NCBI RefSeq assembly: GCF_958304185.2
Contig: NZ_CAXXCI010000002.1
Location: 27,221-91,220, forward strand
Length of the DNA: 64,000 nucleotides
DNA from: an uncultured Erythrobacter sp.
GTDB lineage: Bacteria > Pseudomonadota > Alphaproteobacteria > Sphingomonadales > Sphingomonadaceae
Direction: 5' to 3'
Below are positions 19,700 to 26,691 of this stretch, piece by piece; position 1 is the stretch's first letter, and the number at the start of each line of letters is the position of its first letter. The notes under the pieces are model-generated. The model was not told the DNA's origin and ran no database searches. It worked only from the letters and a program-made list of their open reading frames with translations. The translations under genes and the position numbers were made by a program.

Positions 19700-20296
19700 T
19701 TAGGGAGTGTTCCCGCGCAGCCTTGCGATAAAGGCGTCCATATCCTCCTCCGCGCCGTCATCCCCCTCCGCAGCCTCGCCCTCACCCTCGACCGCCCAAT
19801 CGTCCTCGTCGTATTCCTCGTAGTCCTCGTCATCCCACGCCATCACCACCGGCGGATCGAGCAGCAGCGCCACCCGCTCCTCAAACTCCGCCGCGACCTT
19901 GTGGACCTGATGCGAGGCTTCGATCCGATCGAGCCGCGCGAGGTGCGCCAGCAGCAACCGTCCATCATAACGGGTGCGGGTCGCCACCTCCTCACCGTGA
20001 TAGAACACGGTCTCCTGCACCCCGTTGAGCGCCCGGTCGGCCAGCACCTCCTCGACCTGCGGCCGCGCCAGCACCAGCGCCGCATCCCACAATTGCCGGA
20101 ACTCGGTCGAGGCGCGCCGCATCCGGTACAGATGCGCGCGGCTCACCCCCGCCTGCTGCGCCGCCGCCCGCACATTGCCCCACTGCGCCAGCGTCTGCAC
20201 AAAGGCCGCCTGCACCTCGCGCGACAGATCGGGGGCGAGGCCCGCCGGATCGACAATCTGCGTTGACGGCGCGGACGGGGGAGAATGATCGGACAT
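19700..20296 (-). CDS. phage-like HTH protein (terminase-small-subunit-like N-terminus) with a highly acidic C-terminal tail
   Basis: ATG at 20296. The HTH segment TLAQWGNVRAAAQQAGVSRAHLYRMRR resembles phage small terminase or regulator HTHs. The tail is WDDEDYEEYDEDDWAVEGEGEAAEGDDGAEED. Confidence 0.55.
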   Translation of the reverse strand: MSDHSPPSAPSTQIVDPAGLAPDLSREVQAAFVQTLAQWGNVRAAAQQAGVSRAHLYRMRRASTEFRQLWDAALVLARPQVEEVLADRALNGVQETVFYHGEEVATRTRYDGRLLLAHLARLDRIEASHQVHKVAAEFEERVALLLDPPVVMAWDDEDYEEYDEDDWAVEGEGEAAEGDDGAEEDMDAFIARLRGNTP

Positions 20297-20449
20297 ACAG
20301 CAGCTCCTCGACAAAACCACGCCGCAGCGGGCGCAAAGCGCGGGAGCGTATCAGCGGCAAGTCGCTGTAGGAAAATGGAAAATCTGCGCGTTTTTGTGTT
20401 CCGCATCGCCTCCGCGATGCGAAATCCTCGCTCACACGGTGTCTTTGTT

Positions 20450-20473
20450 GGCCTATCGCTTCGCTACTTGAGG
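20450..20473. repeat. distal copy of the 25-bp repeat core
   Basis: ggcctatcgcttcgctacttgagg, preceded by gtctttgtt. Both match the core and spacer of the 20709-20838 array. Confidence 0.8.
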
Positions 20474-20474
20474 C

Positions 20475-20700
20475 CTGAAGGTCGGGTGTCCCGCCTGCGG
20501 CGGTTCAGCTACGCTTCCGCTGCGGGCGGCCGGTCGGCCTTGCCGGCCTGCGGCCCGATTATCCTCCCCGGCACGGGGAGGGGGACCACCGCAGGTGGTG
20601 GAGGGGCAGGCGCGGCTGCTCCGGTTTCCCCCCTCCCCCCGCGGGAGGGGAGCGAGACTTGGGTCTGCGCAGCAGGCCCTAGTCGCAGCAGGGAGGGGGG
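20475..20700. repeat. GC-rich REP-like hairpin cluster
   Basis: Hairpins include ctccccg-gca-cggggag (20564-20580), ccacc-gca-ggtgg (20586-98) and the G/C tract cccccctccccccgcgggagggg. Confidence 0.6.
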
Positions 20701-20708
20701 ATTTTTGC

Positions 20709-20838
20709 GCCCTACCGCTGCGCTACTTGAGGGAGTCTTTGCTGCCCTATCGCTGCGCTACATGAGGGAGTCTTTGCTGCCCTACCGCTGCGCTACTTGA
20801 GGGCGTATTTTCTGGCCTACCGCTCCGCTACTTGAGGG
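20709..20838. repeat. tandem direct repeat array, 4 copies, 35-bp period
   Basis: The core gccctaccgctgcgctacttgaggg starts at 20709, 20744, 20779 and 20814 with 1-3 mismatches. The 10-nt spacers are agtctttgct (twice) and cgtattttct. Confidence 0.9.
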
Positions 20839-20850
20839 CGGGCACCAAAA

Positions 20851-21090
20851 TCACCAAATCGGAAAGCGCCCATCCCCGCAAATCAACAGCTCATTGGCGA
20901 GCGTGATCGCCCGGATCTCGTCAGGCGTTTCAACCTTCACCCCAATCCGCCCGGCCTCCACATGGGCGAGCCAACTGGCAATGAACGCCTCCCCGCCCGG
21001 ATCGCGCAGATCGGTCGGCCCGACAGGCAGCTTGCGCGACGGATCATAGGGCGAGGGGTTGGTGAGATAGAGCTCGTGACACGTAATCAT
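20851..21090 (-). CDS. hypothetical protein (79 aa)
   Basis: ATG-initiated ORF with host-like GC content. No family recognised. Its stop lies 13 nt from the tandem array. Confidence 0.35.
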   Translation of the reverse strand: MITCHELYLTNPSPYDPSRKLPVGPTDLRDPGGEAFIASWLAHVEAGRIGVKVETPDEIRAITLANELLICGDGRFPIW

Positions 21091-21368
21091 CCGCGCGGGT
21101 CTCCTGCGAGAGAGGACAAGACGCGCCGGACGACCCGAGCCGCCGCAAGAACGCCCCCGCCACGTCAGGGCTTCGCGGAGCCGACGGGCGCAGGAGAGCG
21201 GATGCGGCGCGAGCGGGCTGATCGGCGCGGGCGGGACGGTAGTGGGGTGTGGGGGGTGTAGGAAAGGGAACGAATTTTTCTGTCACATTATAGTGAACCT
21301 ACTGCCTCAAGAATCCACAAAAGCGTTTCATCAAGCACTTGGCTTTTTGTTTGAAGCAAGGGACAACC

Positions 21369-23045
21369 ATGGCGAAAGGAAAAAACGCAATGGCTGTCGT
21401 ATTAAGACGGGGCATGTCAATCGGTGCTATGGCTGCTGAGGACGACCTCAAATTCTTGTCCGACTGCTTCATTGAGACGGGTCAAGCTGCACAGTTAGTG
21501 GATATAAACTCACCGCGCTGCATCGCACTTGGTCGAACAGGTTCAGGTAAGAGCGCCCTACTGATCCATATTGAGCAATCTGAAAGAAATTATGCGAATG
21601 TCGACCCAGAAGACCTTTCACTCCGTTACATAAGCAACTCTGACATTCTCCGGTTTTTTGAAGAAATTGATGTAAATTTGGATGTATTCTACCAGCTACT
21701 TTGGCGTCATATTCTTGTAGTCGAGCTGCTGAAACTTAAGAAGGAATTCCATGATAAAGATTCCGCCACTCGTTGGTTCGCTGGAATCTACAACAGCTTC
21801 GACAAGAACCCAAAGAGGCAGGCCGCCCTGGCTTACCTTACTGAGTTTAATGGCAGCTTTTGGCTCGACACTGAAAAGCGAATTCGGCAGGTCGTCGATC
21901 GGATCGAAGAATCTCTTCAACAATCGCTTGGCATGGATGCACAAACCCTAAGGAGTAGAGTTGCCGCGATGGCAACGTCAGGAAAGAAAAAGGAAAAAGA
22001 AGAGACATCAGAAATCATTAATCGAGCGCAAAAGGTAGTAAGTGAAGTACAAATTCAAGAACTAAATGAACTCATGAAATTTCTGTCAGAGGATATTTTT
22101 AAAGATAGAATGAATAAGTACTATCTCCTTATTGATGATCTTGATCGCGGTTGGGTCCATGATGCGCTAAGGTTTAAGTTGATCAGGGCTCTTATTGAAA
22201 CGATTAGAAAGTTTCGCAGGGTTTCTAACGTAAAAATTATAATTAGTCTTCGCGCCGACCTTTTTCATATGGTAATGAATAAAACTGAGGGCAAGGGGTT
22301 TCAATCGGAGAAATTTGATGACCTCATGCTTAGGATTAAATGGTCAAAATCAGATTTAAAGAATCTGCTCGAAGCTCGAATAAATGAAGTCTTCAAAGAC
22401 CAATACACAGGCCGTAGTTTAAAATTTGAAGATATATTCACCTCTAACATTGGCGACACCGATCCTTTGAGTTATATGCTTGACAGGTCACTTTATCGAC
22501 CAAGAGACATATTGTCGTTTGTCAATCAGTGCTTCGAAGATGCCGAAGTCGGTGCCTCATCGATTAGCGCCAGAGTTCTCCGTAAGGCAGAAACGGAATA
22601 TTCCAACAAACGCTTACTCGCAATTGCAGATGAATGGCGTGAAGCTTATGGTGACCTTGAATATGTTATAGAAAGTCTTGGCAACTTGGAGCCAAGATTT
22701 TCGTATCACGATCTAAGTGACCAATTCTTTGAGGATTTCTGCCTTCAGGTCCTTGCGGGTGATCATACATTTTCCGGTCGATTTGCCATGGTGTGCAATG
22801 GGATTACACAGAATTCTACACCTCACTATCATCAGATAAGAAAGATGTATGTTGAGACGCTATATATTATAGGTGCAATCGGAGTGAAGCGATCTTCCGG
22901 ATCAAAGTTCGAATGGAGCTTTAAGAACGAACCTGTTCTTAATCCCTCGATACTCGACCAAGATACACGATTTTGTGTTCACCCTATGCTTCATCGACGT
23001 CTGAATATGAAAGCGGATGGCTCAACCTTTAATGTTTCCAATTAA
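21369..23045 (+). CDS. orphan P-loop NTPase, KAP/STAND-like, on an AT-rich block
   Basis: First ATG at 21369, with an aaggga Shine-Dalgarno 5 nt upstream; the ORF opens at TTG 21339. Walker A GRTGSGKS is at 21531-21554 and Walker B YYLLIDDLDR at 22119-22148. IIISLRADLF and YRPRDILSF follow. Codon usage is A/T-rich, unlike the neighbouring genes. Confidence 0.85.
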   Translation: MAKGKNAMAVVLRRGMSIGAMAAEDDLKFLSDCFIETGQAAQLVDINSPRCIALGRTGSGKSALLIHIEQSERNYANVDPEDLSLRYISNSDILRFFEEIDVNLDVFYQLLWRHILVVELLKLKKEFHDKDSATRWFAGIYNSFDKNPKRQAALAYLTEFNGSFWLDTEKRIRQVVDRIEESLQQSLGMDAQTLRSRVAAMATSGKKKEKEETSEIINRAQKVVSEVQIQELNELMKFLSEDIFKDRMNKYYLLIDDLDRGWVHDALRFKLIRALIETIRKFRRVSNVKIIISLRADLFHMVMNKTEGKGFQSEKFDDLMLRIKWSKSDLKNLLEARINEVFKDQYTGRSLKFEDIFTSNIGDTDPLSYMLDRSLYRPRDILSFVNQCFEDAEVGASSISARVLRKAETEYSNKRLLAIADEWREAYGDLEYVIESLGNLEPRFSYHDLSDQFFEDFCLQVLAGDHTFSGRFAMVCNGITQNSTPHYHQIRKMYVETLYIIGAIGVKRSSGSKFEWSFKNEPVLNPSILDQDTRFCVHPMLHRRLNMKADGSTFNVSN

Positions 23046-23074
23046 GATTACAGCCCATCCACCAAGTACGACCT

Positions 23075-23720
23075 TTGCGCTCCCCGCCGCGCACGCCGCA
23101 AGCGCGCGCAGCGCGCGCCTCAGCATGGATGCTGAAACAAGTTCAGCATGACGGATAGGCAGGGACGTTGCGGTTGCGAACCCTAACGCGAGACGCTCAC
23201 AAACGTCCGTAGGTTGGCAGGGCCCCTCTGCGCCTCTCCTTCCCTCTGCGGTCTCTGCGTGAAACACACTGTCTTTGCCGGGGAGCGACGGTGCGCAGGG
23301 CTTCGAGCGTCGTACACCCACCCCCGGCCCCGATACCTGCCCCGGCGGAGCCGAAGGCGTGGCGAAGCCACAACGCCGGGGTCAAGGGCGGGGGGAAGGC
23401 GCGGTTCGGGACGCTGATGCCTCACCGCTCGTCACCCTGAACTTGGTTCAGGGTCCATCCTGCCTCTCGCTCGGGCAGTGCAATCTGCGGAATGGATGCT
23501 GAAACAAGTTCAGCATGACGGGGTTTGGCGACGGCGCGCAGAAACTCAAGCTTGCCCCTCCACCATCCTGCGGATGGTCCCTCCTTCGACAGGCTCAGGA
23601 CAGGCTCTCCCCTTGAAGGAGAGGATTGCACTCTTGGCTTCTTGGCGGCTTGGCGCGAACCCTCATGAGCCCACCGCCCTTCGACAGGCTCATGAGGCCC
23701 CCGCCTGCGCGGGGGCTCAC
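23075..23720. repeat. pile-up of several REP/MITE-like hairpin elements
   Basis: A 30-bp perfect direct repeat, atggatgctgaaacaagttcagcatgacgg, occurs at 23125-23154 and 23492-23521; each copy is palindromic. Also present are the ctgaacttggttcag hairpin (~23445-23460), the ctctgcg..ctctgcgtgaaac element (~23230-23265) and gcccccgc-ctgc-gcgggggc (23697-23716). Confidence 0.8.
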
Positions 23721-23721
23721 A

Positions 23722-26691
23722 TCAGGTCTTGAGGAGCGGCGCCAGATACTGCCCCGTAAAGCTCCGCGGCTCCTTCACCACCTGCTCGGGCGTGCCTTCC
23801 GCGACGATCTCGCCGCCGCGCACGCCGCCTTCGGGGCCGAGGTCGATGATCCAGTCGGCGGTCTTGATCACGTCGAGGTTGTGTTCGATCACCACGACCG
23901 AGTTGCCGCCCTCCACCAGCCGGTGCAGCACTTCGAGCAGTTTGCGCACGTCCTCGAAATGCAGGCCGGTGGTCGGCTCGTCGAGGATGTAGAGCGTCTG
24001 GCCGGTGCTGCGGCGCGCGAGTTCCTTGGCGAGTTTCACCCGCTGCGCCTCGCCGCCGGACAGGGTGGTCGCCTGCTGGCCGACCTTGACGTAGCCGAGA
24101 CCGACCTCGTTCAGCATCCGCATCTTCTCGCGGATCGGGGGGACGGCCTTGAAGAACTCCTCGGCATCCTCGATCGTCATGTCGAGCACGTCGGCGATGG
24201 AGTGGCCCTTGAACTTCACCTCGAGCGTCTCGCGGTTGTAGCGTTTGCCGCCGCATTCCTCGCAGGTGACGTAGACGTCGGGGAGGAAGTGCATCTCGAT
24301 CTTGATGAGGCCGTCGCCCTGGCACTTCTCGCAGCGGCCGCCCTTGACGTTGAAGGAGAAGCGGCCGGGCTTGTACCCGCGGGCGAGGCTTTCGGGGAGG
24401 CCGGCGAACCAGTCGCGGATCTGGGTGAAGGCGCCGGTGTAGGTGGCGGGGTTGGAGCGCGGGGTGCGGCCGATGGGGGACTGGTCGATCTCGATGACCT
24501 TGTCGCAGTATTCGAGCCCGGTGATGGCGTCATGCGCCCCCGCGATCACCCGCGCGCCGTTAAGCGCCCGCGCCGCGCCGGCTTGCAGCGTGTCGATGGT
24601 GAGGCTGGATTTGCCCGAGCCGGAGACCCCGGTGATGCAAGTGAAGGTGCCGAGCGGGATCTTGGCCGTCACGCCCTTGAGGTTGTTGGCGCGCGCGTTC
24701 TTGACCACGATCTTGTGGCCGTTGCCCTTGCGGCGCTTGGCCGGGACTTCGATCTTGCGCTTGCCGGTGAGGTAGTCGGCGGTGAGGCTGCCCTTGGCCT
24801 TGAGGATCTGCTTCAGGGTGCCCTGCGCGACGATCTCGCCCCCGTGCACCCCCGCGCCCGGGCCAAGGTCGACGATGTAGTCGGCGGTGCGGATGGCGTC
24901 CTCGTCATGCTCGACGACGATGACGGTGTTGCCGAGATCGCGCAGGCGTTTGAGGGTTTCGAGCAGCCGGTCATTGTCGCGCTGGTGGAGGCCGATGCTG
25001 GGCTCATCGAGGACGTAGAGCACGCCGGAGAGGCCGGAGCCGATCTGCGAGGCGAGGCGGATGCGCTGGCTCTCCCCACCCGATAGCGTGCCGGAGGTGC
25101 GGTCGAGGTTGAGGTAGTCAAGGCCCACGTTGTCGAGGAAGCCAAGCCGCTCGTTGATCTCCTTCAGGATCGCCTTGGCAATCTGGCTTTGCTGCGAGGT
25201 CAGCTGCGCGTCCAATGCGAGGAACCACGCCTTGGCATCCGCCACGCTCATCGCGACGGGAGTGGCGATGTCGGTCTGGGCGATGCGGACGCTCAGCGCC
25301 TTTTCATTGAGGCGCTTGCCGCCGCAGGTCTCGCACGCCTGCGCTGTCTGGTACTTGGACAGCTCCTCCTGCATCCACGCGCTTTCGGTCTGCATCATGC
25401 GGCGGTTGAGGTTGCCGATGACGCCCTCGAACGCCTTGTTGACGGTGTATTCGCGGCGGCCATCCTTGAAGGTCAGCGGCACCGGCATCCCGCCCGTGCC
25501 GTGGAGGATGATGAGTTTCTGTTCGGGCGCGAGGTCTTTCCACGGCGTCGTCAGGTCGAAGCCATACGCCTTCGCGAGGCTGGCGAGCACCTGCATATAG
25601 TAAGGCGACGGCGGGTTGGACTTGGCCCACGGCACCACCGCGCCCTGCTTCAAAGTCAATGCCTCGTTCGGGACGACCAGCTGCGGGTCGAACAGCATCT
25701 TCTCGCCGATCCCGTCGCACGCGGGGCAGGCGCCTTGCGGGGCGTTGAACGAGAACAGGCGCGGTTCGATCTCCTCGATGGTGAAGCCGCTCACCGGGCA
25801 GGCGAACTTCTCGGAGAAGACGATGCGGTTGGGCGGCAGGCCCGCGCCCTTCATCTTGCCACCATCCTGAGCGTGAGTCCCCGCGGCGGCGGGGACCTCA
25901 GTCGGTAGTGCGCCATTGCCTGAGGCCCCCGCCTGCGCGGGGGCGCGCGATACGAGATCAGCCACGGTCGTGTCGGCCAAATCGACAAACGCCAGCCCCT
26001 CGGCCAGCTTCAACGCCTGTTCGAAGCTTTCGGCGAGGCGGGTTTCGATGCCCTCCTTCACCGCGATCCGGTCAACCACCACTTCGATGTCATGCTTGAA
26101 CTTCTTGTCGAGCGCGGGGGCTTCCTCAATCGGGTAAATCTCCCCGTCGATCCGTACGCGGGTGAAGCCGCTGCGCTGCCATTCGGCCAGCTCCTTGCGG
26201 TATTCCCCCTTGCGCCCGCGCACCACCGGAGCGAGCAGGAACAAGCGTGTGCCTTCTGGCAGAGCCATCACCCGGTCGACCATCTGGCTGACGGTCTGGG
26301 CGCTGATCGGCAGGCCGGTCGTGGGCGAATAGGGCGTGCCGACCCGTGCCCACAGCAGTCGCATATAGTCGTAGATCTCGGTGACGGTCGCCACGGTCGA
26401 GCGCGGATTGCGGCTCGTCGTCTTCTGCTCGATCGAGATCGCGGGGCTCAGTCCGTCGATATGCTCGACATCGGGCTTCTGCATCATTTCGAGGAACTGG
26501 CGCGCATAGGCGCTGAGGCTCTCGACATAGCGCCGCTGCCCCTCGGCATAGATGGTGTCGAAGGCGAGGCTGGATTTGCCGCTGCCCGACAGGCCCGTCA
26601 CCACGATCAGCGCATCACGCGGCAGATCAATGTCGATACCCTTGAGGTTATGTTCGCGCGCGCCGCGCACGGAGATGGTGGTGAGGCTCAT
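23722..26691 (-). CDS. uvrA: excinuclease ABC subunit UvrA
   Basis: 989 aa beginning [26 protein letters not shown]. Two ABC modules ([20 protein letters not shown]), zinc fingers, and [12 protein letters not shown]. Confidence 0.97.
25875..25944. repeat. double-hairpin REP-like element embedded in frame in uvrA
   Basis: Hairpins gtccccgc-ggcg-gcggggac (25877-25896) and gcccccgc-ctgc-gcgggggc (25925-25944). The same modules and linker blocks occur at 54570-54642. Translated as [26 protein letters not shown]. Confidence 0.75.

Follow-up and report, generated by a model that had tools for sequence, protein, structure and literature searches.

What is a lone AT-rich ATPase gene doing at the 3′ end of uvrA in otherwise GC-rich DNA? 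The question is raised by a 64,000-nt stretch from an uncultured Erythrobacter sp. (assembly GCF_958304185.2, contig NZ_CAXXCI010000002.1, positions 27,221 to 91,220), hereafter the window, in which a block of foreign composition carries the gene of a 558-aa P-loop ATPase. Judged by its sequence, this ATPase belongs to a family that is already known, and the gene is not new in that sense. What is new is the documentation of the uvrA 3′ flank as a hotspot for defence genes and the AT-richness that runs through the whole family. From its location and neighbourhood, the most likely function of the gene is single-gene defence against phages or other mobile DNA, which we propose with moderate confidence; for any specific mechanistic step our confidence is much lower.

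A first-pass annotation made from the letters of this DNA had pointed to an abrupt drop in base composition at about 21262–23075, to one long open reading frame (ORF) of 558 aa inside it and to the lack of a partner gene, and all three observations stand. In 400-bp windows, GC content falls from 0.61–0.69 in the surroundings to 0.36–0.51 at about 21200–23200. The block 21262–23075 has a GC content of 0.423 compared with 0.643 for the full window, and GC at third codon positions is 0.415 in the ATPase gene against 0.893 in the adjoining uvrA. Outside the block, 300-bp windows average 0.649 (standard deviation 0.039, minimum 0.550), which puts the block mean 5.8 standard deviations below them, and 21201–23200 is the sole part of the 64 kb to fall under 0.54. 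The long ORF has an alternative TTG start at 21339, and the chance of a stop-free run of 558 codons at the base composition of the block is about 2e-16. The ORF listing gave no second gene inside the block, the remaining ORFs being short (63–82 aa) and overlapping. Nucleotide homology with the closest allele, on the metagenomic contig L187 (L numbers are our locus identifiers), extends from about 21244 through the stop codon. A scan for sigma-70 consensus promoters upstream of the gene, together with a terminator scan, gave nothing informative; because no consensus promoter was found there, we can only infer the one given in Table 1. The block is best explained as a one-gene cargo cassette, made of about 125 bp of upstream DNA and the coding sequence, with the 3′ end of uvrA on one side of it and a terS-like gene on the other.

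Why should such a cassette lie beside uvrA? The ATPase gene directly adjoins uvrA and is convergent with it in nine genomes or contigs. Besides the window, the uvrA-linked copies are found in Tsuneonella (L001/L003), Sphingosinithalassobacter (L002), Sphingomonas sp. PP-CE-1G-424 (L006), Sphingobium agri (L008) and metagenomic contigs or metagenome-assembled genomes (L007, L089, L187/L188 and L189). UvrA is 78–86% identical among the syntenic sphingomonad loci. In a neighbour-joining tree of 78 family members, the nine uvrA-linked copies and one short Sphingomonas contig form a single clade of 10, and the 78 family loci that were examined show no linkage to uvrA outside this clade. When metagenomes were scanned with the C-terminal 350 residues of the window UvrA, 80 uvrA loci (67–96% identical) were recovered, and none of the 80 encodes a relative of the ATPase. 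In the closest of these loci (L107, UvrA C-terminus 96% identical), the order argG, rlpA-like, symporter and uvrA is kept and the site is taken up by about 1 kb of GC-rich DNA. In the window it spans about 4 kb, in which the ATPase gene is accompanied by the terS-like gene, a 79-aa ORF, repeats and repetitive extragenic palindromic (REP) elements.

An AT-rich block of at least 600 bp directly follows uvrA in 15 of the 23 close loci (UvrA C-terminus at least 80% identical, with at least 1.5 kb of downstream sequence), compared with 4 of 43 more distant ones. Like the window ATPase gene, the ORFs in these blocks are mostly convergent on uvrA. The annotated cargo, in eight loci, consists of known defence-type genes: retron reverse transcriptases of types II-A (8e-102) and III-A (2e-122), two OLD/GajA-like ATPase-TOPRIM proteins, an E1-E2 plus JAB pair, a CAP12/Pycsar-type TIR protein, an AriAB-like PARIS fusion with DUF4435 (1e-60) and a PDC-S06/AAA_13 protein (2e-147). 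Since it is filled with defence genes in relatives, the uvrA 3′ flank constitutes a defence hotspot specific to the Sphingomonadales, and the window ATPase gene is one of its alternative cargoes. A literature search for 'defense hotspot' together with uvrA found no paper. As for signs of an integrative element, no tRNA or Rfam family and no direct repeats bracketing the block were found, nor any integrase in the hotspot interval. The first-pass annotation had held that homologues in conserved housekeeping contexts would speak against its proposal of a defence module. The sphingomonad orthologues do always stand beside uvrA, yet this does not tell against the proposal, because the uvrA flank is itself a variable island. 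In the window the hotspot region comprises 19700–23045 and 23046–23721; the hotspot loci of our collection run from L107 to L134, and cargo ORFs without annotation occur in L114, L117, L123, L125, L127, L140, L145 and L152.

The AT-richness of the gene extends across its family. A survey of one genome per species, covering 185,579 species, yielded 221 stretches with a relative, of which 80 loci were kept. These are mostly from Proteobacteria, the others being labelled Chlorobium, Saccharimonadales, Kiritimatiellota, Chloroflexia/Aggregatilineales, Gemmatimonadales and cyanobacteria. The homologue is lower in GC than its flanks in 77 of 78 loci (median −16 points), and in 54 of 68 the low-GC block is confined to the ATPase gene, within 300 bp on each side. 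Gene GC follows the host with half the slope (gene GC = 0.48 × flank GC + 0.15, r 0.69), and within the uvrA-linked clade it stays at 0.40–0.50 in genomes of 0.63–0.68. This persistence of AT-richness in a clade tied to one site suggests selection for low GC or continual exchange of the gene. Between the window and L187 (371–2047), the proteins are 92% identical and the proportion of nonsynonymous differences (pN) is 0.057, with four-fold sites saturated in the ATPase gene (133 of 195 differ) against 6 of 32 in the uvrA fragment (L187 2367–2540). A pN this low beside saturated synonymous sites indicates strong purifying selection on the ATPase protein, and the saturation suggests either that old alleles have been exchanged at the hotspot or that the synonymous rate is unusual. 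Family-wide AT-richness and the saturation relative to the flank are clues to how the cassette is exchanged and regulated.

To which family does the ATPase belong? It matches NCBIfam NF047389, 'P-loop ATPase, Sll1717 family', at 243 bits, where the cutoff is 75 (E 7.1e-72), and from end to end (residues 19–545 on profile positions 2–454 of 454), and it also matches phrog_13260 (5e-37), which PHROG files under 'unknown function'. Both families had been catalogued previously, so that the earlier suggestion of an orphan or new NTPase family has to be given up. A protein database search at E≤1e-3 gave 669 homologues. The nearest shares 92% identity with the ATPase; the values are about 48–70% for sphingomonad relatives and 35–41% for gamma- and beta-proteobacterial ones. 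Among 1.84 billion cluster representatives (50% identity clusters), a profile search found 904 at E≤1e-30, 2654 at 1e-10 and 4742 at 1e-3. The name Sll1717 family already appears in the RefSeq annotation of Escherichia coli plasmid copies. Exact-protein look-ups of the window ATPase and of P0037 found neither on record.

The ATPase had also been described as KAP/STAND-like. It is a P-loop NTPase, and the rest of the description is right at the superfamily level only, because the query itself matched no Pfam model at E≤1 and relatives match such models weakly. When 45 family members were scanned singly, weak matches went to nSTAND1 (23), AAA_16 (22), nSTAND3 (14), KAP_NTPase (10), NPHP3_N (6) and NACHT (2), the best match to KAP_NTPase (PF07693) being at 2.6e-6. 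'KAP' names here a resemblance and not a membership, because the query misses the Pfam KAP and STAND models and has no transmembrane helices: no hydrophobic or transmembrane segment was found in it, the maximum 19-residue Kyte-Doolittle value being 1.15. Sequence searches of the PDB, one using the protein by itself and one using the profile of its family, returned generic P-loop matches alone; a match to EcoRII at E 0.68 was set aside as noise.

The architecture was examined on an AlphaFold 2 (AF2) model built with 44 homologues (predicted local distance difference test, pLDDT, 83.9; predicted template modelling score, pTM, 0.82) and on an alignment of 45 family members, from which all conservation counts are taken. 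The query has all of the motifs GRTGxGK, hhhhDxLD, LRxD, GFQxxK and RPRD...N, each of which is invariant across the alignment (45 of 45 members). The stretches picked out by the first-pass annotation (GRTGSGKS, YYLLIDDLDR, KIIISLRADLF, FCVHPMLHRRL, YRPRDILSFVNQC and SGKKKEKEETSE, among them the K/E-rich one) all occur in the sequence at the positions it had given. A strand (52–55) runs into Walker A in the model, 188 residues separate S62 of this motif from Y251 of Walker B, and the insert between them is predicted to form helices 105–125, 130–143, 148–159, 168–187, 191–204 and 207–243 (pLDDT 65–77). The invariant GFQxxK loop occupies residues 310–315. The position of R295, at the end of strand 288–295, resembles that of the arginine in the sensor-1 motif hhhTTR(D) of STAND proteins. 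In length and motifs the ATPase agrees with hundreds of members of NF047389 and phrog_13260 and shows no structural difference from them; what sets its clade apart is Walker B, which reads hhhhDDLD[T/R]GW in sphingomonads and hhhhDxLDExW in the rest of the family. Residues 256–261 (22134–22151) covary by clade, as if the second acidic residue had shifted from 260 to 257.

Modelled alone, the last 163 residues fold confidently (pLDDT 90.1) into a compact domain in which helices are followed by a terminal beta-hairpin. Column entropy reaches the maximum for the protein, 2.68, at residues 441–500, where identity to gamma-proteobacterial members is 17–18% compared with 56–59% in the ATPase core. 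A conserved core joined to a divergent 441–500 segment is the pattern expected of a specificity-determining surface, and the segment may be such a surface. The order of secondary structure elements is consistent with a nucleotide-binding domain (NBD), a helical domain and a winged-helix (WH)-like domain, the fold matches of the last being sub-threshold, and we read the model as a bare NBD–lid–WH-like switch module of ORC/STAND type with a helical insert. The near-invariant H538-P-M540 could then be likened to the MHD-type, nucleotide-contacting His of the STAND WH domain. A Foldseek search of the whole chain against the PDB gave distant matches only (E≥3e-4, query-normalised template modelling (TM) score ≤0.37). 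Normalised to the target, TM was 0.50 and 0.54 for the archaeal Walker-type ATPases 2qen and 2fna and 0.44 for ORC2 (1w5t), and 0.32–0.54 over the ORC/Cdc6-like, archaeal ATPase and MalT matches; BrxC, HslU and RdrA were also matched. Against the viral structures of BFVD the model found generic AAA+, ORC and STAND folds only and nothing useful.

Several findings weigh against a role in defence. As the first-pass annotation had noted, no effector domain is recognisable in the ATPase, by Pfam or by Foldseek. Of its last ~170 residues, which had been left unassigned as a possible effector or sensor, no obvious effector emerged and what remains is a compact helical domain. Foldseek of this domain against the PDB gave nothing significant, the best E value being 0.65, and winged-helix proteins predominate among the sub-threshold matches (the SprMcrA sulfur-binding domain, SarX, PadR, ORC/Cdc6 WH, MukE/F and MarR). 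Its net charge is negative; because of this charge and of the sub-threshold matches, a nucleic-acid-binding role would be a tentative proposal. Nearly all of the top 150 cluster representatives measure 531–593 aa and lack fusions, from which it follows that the architecture of the family is uniform. A search for a known defence family in PADLOC-DB v2.0 (2023) gave no meaningful match, the query hitting only mad8 at 9e-6 and PDC-M28C at 3e-4. A tblastn search of 50,697 GenBank phage genomes found no match, and a literature search for Sll1717 and for WP_000026497, the E. coli protein, found no mention. The genomic context as a whole speaks strongly for defence, through the hotspot cargo in relatives and the restriction–modification (R-M), TIR and PLD genes beside homologues elsewhere; on the other side, ordinary housekeeping genes make up the majority of neighbours in the family. 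The ATPase gene is often a lone insertion among such genes, as at apt/mtnA in three Nitrosomonadales/Gallionellales genomes, beside glnS in three Burkholderiales genomes and in the ilv region of Shewanella.

The mad8 match was dismissed as a generic P-loop artefact, the mad3 and mad8 models scoring UvrA at 1e-100 and 1e-37. These PADLOC v2 models of the MADS system respond to ordinary UvrA (L002 11714–14734 and other loci) and carry a risk of false positives for automated MADS calls, a risk shared by weak mad8 matches of any P-loop protein.

Is the ATPase a complete system or one half of a system? It could be the sensor or regulator of a multi-part system whose effector lies elsewhere or has been lost, with the solo copy inactive or reliant on something supplied by the host, for example a restriction enzyme or an NADase. 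The missing effector domain and a layout like that of a bare NBD–lid–WH switch module would suit such a half-system, as would some of the neighbours. Pfam and PADLOC models assigned, among 77 upstream neighbours, ResIII (8), HSDR_N (5), one REase_I model (6), a CAP12-type TIR or PbeA (3–4), mREase_IV, a type IV restriction model (3), PDC-S35 (3), AriA (2) and OloB (1); the 78 downstream neighbours add OloA, DolB, PDC-S14, PDC-S04, PDC-M37B, type II methyltransferases (MTase_II), HNH, TIR-TM and transposases. The gene lies in or beside type I R-M operons (hsdR, hsdS, hsdM) in about 8 of 77 loci, and a TIR or PLD gene is tightly linked to it in some clades. In four Pseudomonas loci a low-GC CAP12/Pycsar-type TIR gene (PF10137, 2.8e-34; PbeA-like in PADLOC) precedes it by 3–58 bp on the same strand (L015 9069–9998, L027 9058–9945, L035 9057–9944 and L038 9056–9943), and TIR and ATPase genes there are probably a two-gene cassette. 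A TIR_2 gene follows 35 bp downstream in one locus, and a PLD-like gene accompanies the ATPase in another.

Against this stands the fact that in most loci, as described above, the low-GC cassette is the ATPase gene alone. Neighbour clustering over about 80 loci revealed no partner common to the whole family, and the upstream ORFs of the Pseudomonas and Aeromonas loci are not related to each other. Length is uniform, and purifying selection is strong in solo contexts. The nine uvrA-linked copies share no common partner, the terS-like gene and the ATPase each occurring without the other: the former adjoins the ATPase in L001/L003, L008 and L189 and adjoins uvrA without an ATPase in L110, L113, L117 and L128, and was rejected as an obligate partner on that account. 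A sensor half in need of another gene is, on balance, unlikely, although it is the strongest of the alternatives.

Somewhat less likely again is that the gene serves competition between mobile elements or their maintenance, by plasmid or integrative and conjugative element (ICE) exclusion or in an addiction-like manner, and does not act on phages. Relatives were found in 93 plasmid records, of which 59 are conjugative, with carriers that include Klebsiella, E. coli and Raoultella. The plasmid copies sit alone beside IS26, toxin-antitoxin pairs and another P-loop gene. One E. coli plasmid allele (≥99% nucleotide identity) was found in 30 of 5426 complete genomes and on plasmids every time; one member lies inside the conjugation module of an ICE of Serratia ureilytica (L192/L193 8001–9641), between TraC_F_IV and DUF1525/TraU; and 16 IMG/VR contigs, of prophage type, carry a relative. 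The sphingomonad copies, by contrast, are chromosomal and lack an integrase, a tRNA and flanking direct repeats, and their slot is shared with classical anti-phage genes. Activity against plasmids would in any case be defence in a broad sense, and carriage on plasmids and ICEs, though it fits this alternative, does not single it out. Two of the plasmid loci (L087 and L088, from E. coli and Enterobacter) are on IncF-type plasmids, where the ATPase gene stands beside IS26, VapBC and ParDE modules and another P-loop NTPase.

That the ATPase is a DNA-repair accessory acting with UvrA might be suggested by its adjoining uvrA in nine sphingomonad loci and by the names 'DNA repair ATPase' and 'DNA repair protein' that databases give to some homologues, but this is very improbable. 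The two genes are convergent and therefore not co-transcribed, the composition of the ATPase gene is foreign, and in the 78 family loci examined uvrA linkage stops at the border of one clade. A functional link to uvrA was rejected because all 80 of the sampled uvrA loci, the closest ones, lack the ATPase and because of the retron, OLD-like and PARIS-like genes that take the same slot in relatives. Least probable of all is a decaying or functionless horizontally acquired remnant, which the foreign composition and the empty promoter scan might suggest and which the intact 558-codon ORF, catalytic motifs that are all intact and the low pN beside saturated synonymous sites contradict.

How could a defence protein with no partner work? 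The resting protein would be nucleotide-bound and in an 'off' state. The 441–500 segment, the helical insert or both may recognise a protein or nucleic acid of the invader, upon which the intact Walker A/B site would exchange or hydrolyse its nucleotide and so drive oligomerisation or remodelling. In solo copies the ATPase itself might stop the invader by sequestering or remodelling a target or by consuming ATP; in copies paired with a TIR or PLD gene, or placed within a type I R-M operon, it would be the sensor or regulator of that effector. A bolder version, possible and rather doubtful in our judgement, is that Sll1717 ATPases are a widespread form of self-sufficient single-protein immunity in which a minimal, effector-less STAND/KAP-like switch, equipped with the helical insert and the fast-evolving winged-helix-like domain, both senses and neutralises invaders, that their AT-richness is selected because it keeps the expression of a dangerous protein silencer-controlled or translation-limited, and that the uvrA flank is an unreported hotspot.

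If protection were confirmed, a catalogued and uncharacterised family of about 900 clusters, present on plasmids and ICEs and in many environmental Proteobacteria, would gain a function. A minimal, NTPase-only architecture would also be added to the STAND/KAP immune repertoire, raising the question of how an ATPase lacking an effector stops an invader. Whatever the role of the ATPase gene, the uvrA 3′ flank offers a place to look for more cargo in the under-studied Sphingomonadales.

How does the ATPase compare with known systems? A DDLDR-like Walker B that a long insert separates from Walker A is diagnostic of KAP NTPases. The ATPase shares with them this insert and a DDLDR-type Walker B, and its family a sporadic, mobile distribution and weak matches to PF07693 in 10 of 45 members; it differs in that the query misses PF07693 at E≤1, has no transmembrane helices and carries an insert that the model draws as a soluble helical bundle. 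Typical KAP members have four transmembrane helices, an exception being PifA of the F plasmid, which excludes phage T7 (PMC13001434); the lack of such helices is common to PifA and the ATPase. A precedent for single-gene defence comes from Enterococcus faecalis, where KAP P-loop NTPases that act alone, and whose C-terminal regions are uncharacterised, give protection from phages that requires Walker B and is not abortive (PMC13552941), and Tmn illustrates that an NTPase can itself be the effector (PMC13001434). The C-terminal regions of the E. faecalis proteins are diverse and of 300 aa (PMC13552941), whereas that of the ATPase is a short, fold-conserved domain.

With STAND NTPases (Avs/AVAST and bacterial NLR-like proteins) the ATPase shares an invariant Arg that closes the sensor-1 strand, and the STAND protein MalT is among its best fold matches; to judge by the model, it may also have their order of NBD, lid and WH-like domain. 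Unlike them, it has 558 aa, no TPR, WD40 or LRR repeat sensor, no N- or C-terminal effector and no STAND Pfam match. It resembles KAP and STAND proteins only in its probable way of working; the testable defining features of both (Pfam model and transmembrane helices for KAP; Pfam model, repeat sensor and effector for STAND) are missing from it. The best whole-chain matches, to ORC/Cdc6-type AAA+ proteins and archaeal Walker-type ATPases (2qen, 2fna and 1w5t), share an AAA+ base, a lid and, if the model is read as above, a C-terminal winged-helix arrangement, but E values of 3e-4 to 1e-3, identities of 10–12% and the lack of the 140-residue helical insert separate them, and their roles are in replication or are unknown archaeal ones rather than those of a mobile cargo. 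BrxC (BREX) and RdrA (RADAR) are likewise AAA+-type defence ATPases with inserted helical elements (Foldseek E 6e-4 to 1e-2); in contrast to the ATPase they belong to multi-gene systems with partners (PglZ/BrxB and RdrB, respectively), TM scores are about 0.2–0.33 and no sequence relation was found. PrrC is a guardian NTPase embedded in type I R-M operons. The position of Sll1717 genes in or beside hsdR, hsdS and hsdM recalls it, but the ATPase has no anticodon-nuclease domain and no match to a PrrC model, and the window copy lies away from R-M genes.

Table 1. Features of the hotspot and of the ATPase gene in the window (positions in the 64,000-nt stretch; a dot marks features with no strand).
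Feature	Position	Strand	Evidence or remark
AT-rich upstream region, putative promoter and 5′ untranslated region; AAGGGA Shine-Dalgarno 5 nt 5′ of the ATG	21244..21368	+	Composition drop starts here
Coding sequence from the ATG, 558-aa Sll1717-family P-loop ATPase, stop codon included	21369..23045	+	ORF; NF047389; phrog_13260; 669 homologues; AF2 model
Walker A GRTGSGKS (G55–S62, K61 invariant)	21531..21554	+	GRTGxGK in 45/45 members
Predicted all-helical insert of ~140 residues (105–245) between Walker A and Walker B strands, with K/E-rich stretch	21681..22103	+	DSSP on model
Walker B YYLLIDDLDR (D256 and D259 invariant; strand 251–255)	22119..22148	+	Alignment; model
Strand 288–295 ending in invariant R295, and D297 (IIISLRAD)	22230..22259	+	45/45 members; model
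Helical lid, residues 326–395, with invariant RPRD...N (R377–D380, N386; DNA 22497–22526)	22344..22553	+	Alignment; model
C-terminal domain, residues 396–558, with fastest-evolving segment 441–500 (DNA 22689–22868) and near-invariant H538-P-M540 (22980–22988)	22554..23042	+	Separate AF2 model
uvrA, conserved hotspot flank, convergent with the ATPase gene	23722..26691	-	ORF; UvrA Pfam domains in neighbours
terS-like helix-turn-helix ORF of GC-rich native composition, recurrent far flank of the hotspot	19700..20320	-	phrog_4044 4.7e-16; no Pfam match
35-bp tandem repeat, 3.9 copies, 90% match	20704..20838	.	TRF score 214; between terS-like gene and 79-aa ORF
79-aa ORF between terS-like gene and AT-rich block	20851..21090	-	No Pfam or PHROG match; common only to the L187 contig
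Two REP-like 60-nt copies (23095–23154 and 23462–23521) between the ATPase and uvrA stop codons	23095..23521	.	Direct-repeat family D3, 78% identity

The phage-like remnants and the repeat pile-up that had been noted beside the block can now be given a more precise description. The former correspond to the terS-like ORF, which is not obviously part of a prophage. The latter corresponds to the 35-bp tandem array, of which one further dispersed copy lies at 20438–20494, and to the two REP-like copies. Both of these contain the hairpin GATGCTGAAACAAGTTCAGCATGACGG, and the corresponding spacers of L187 and L188 contain short matches related to it.

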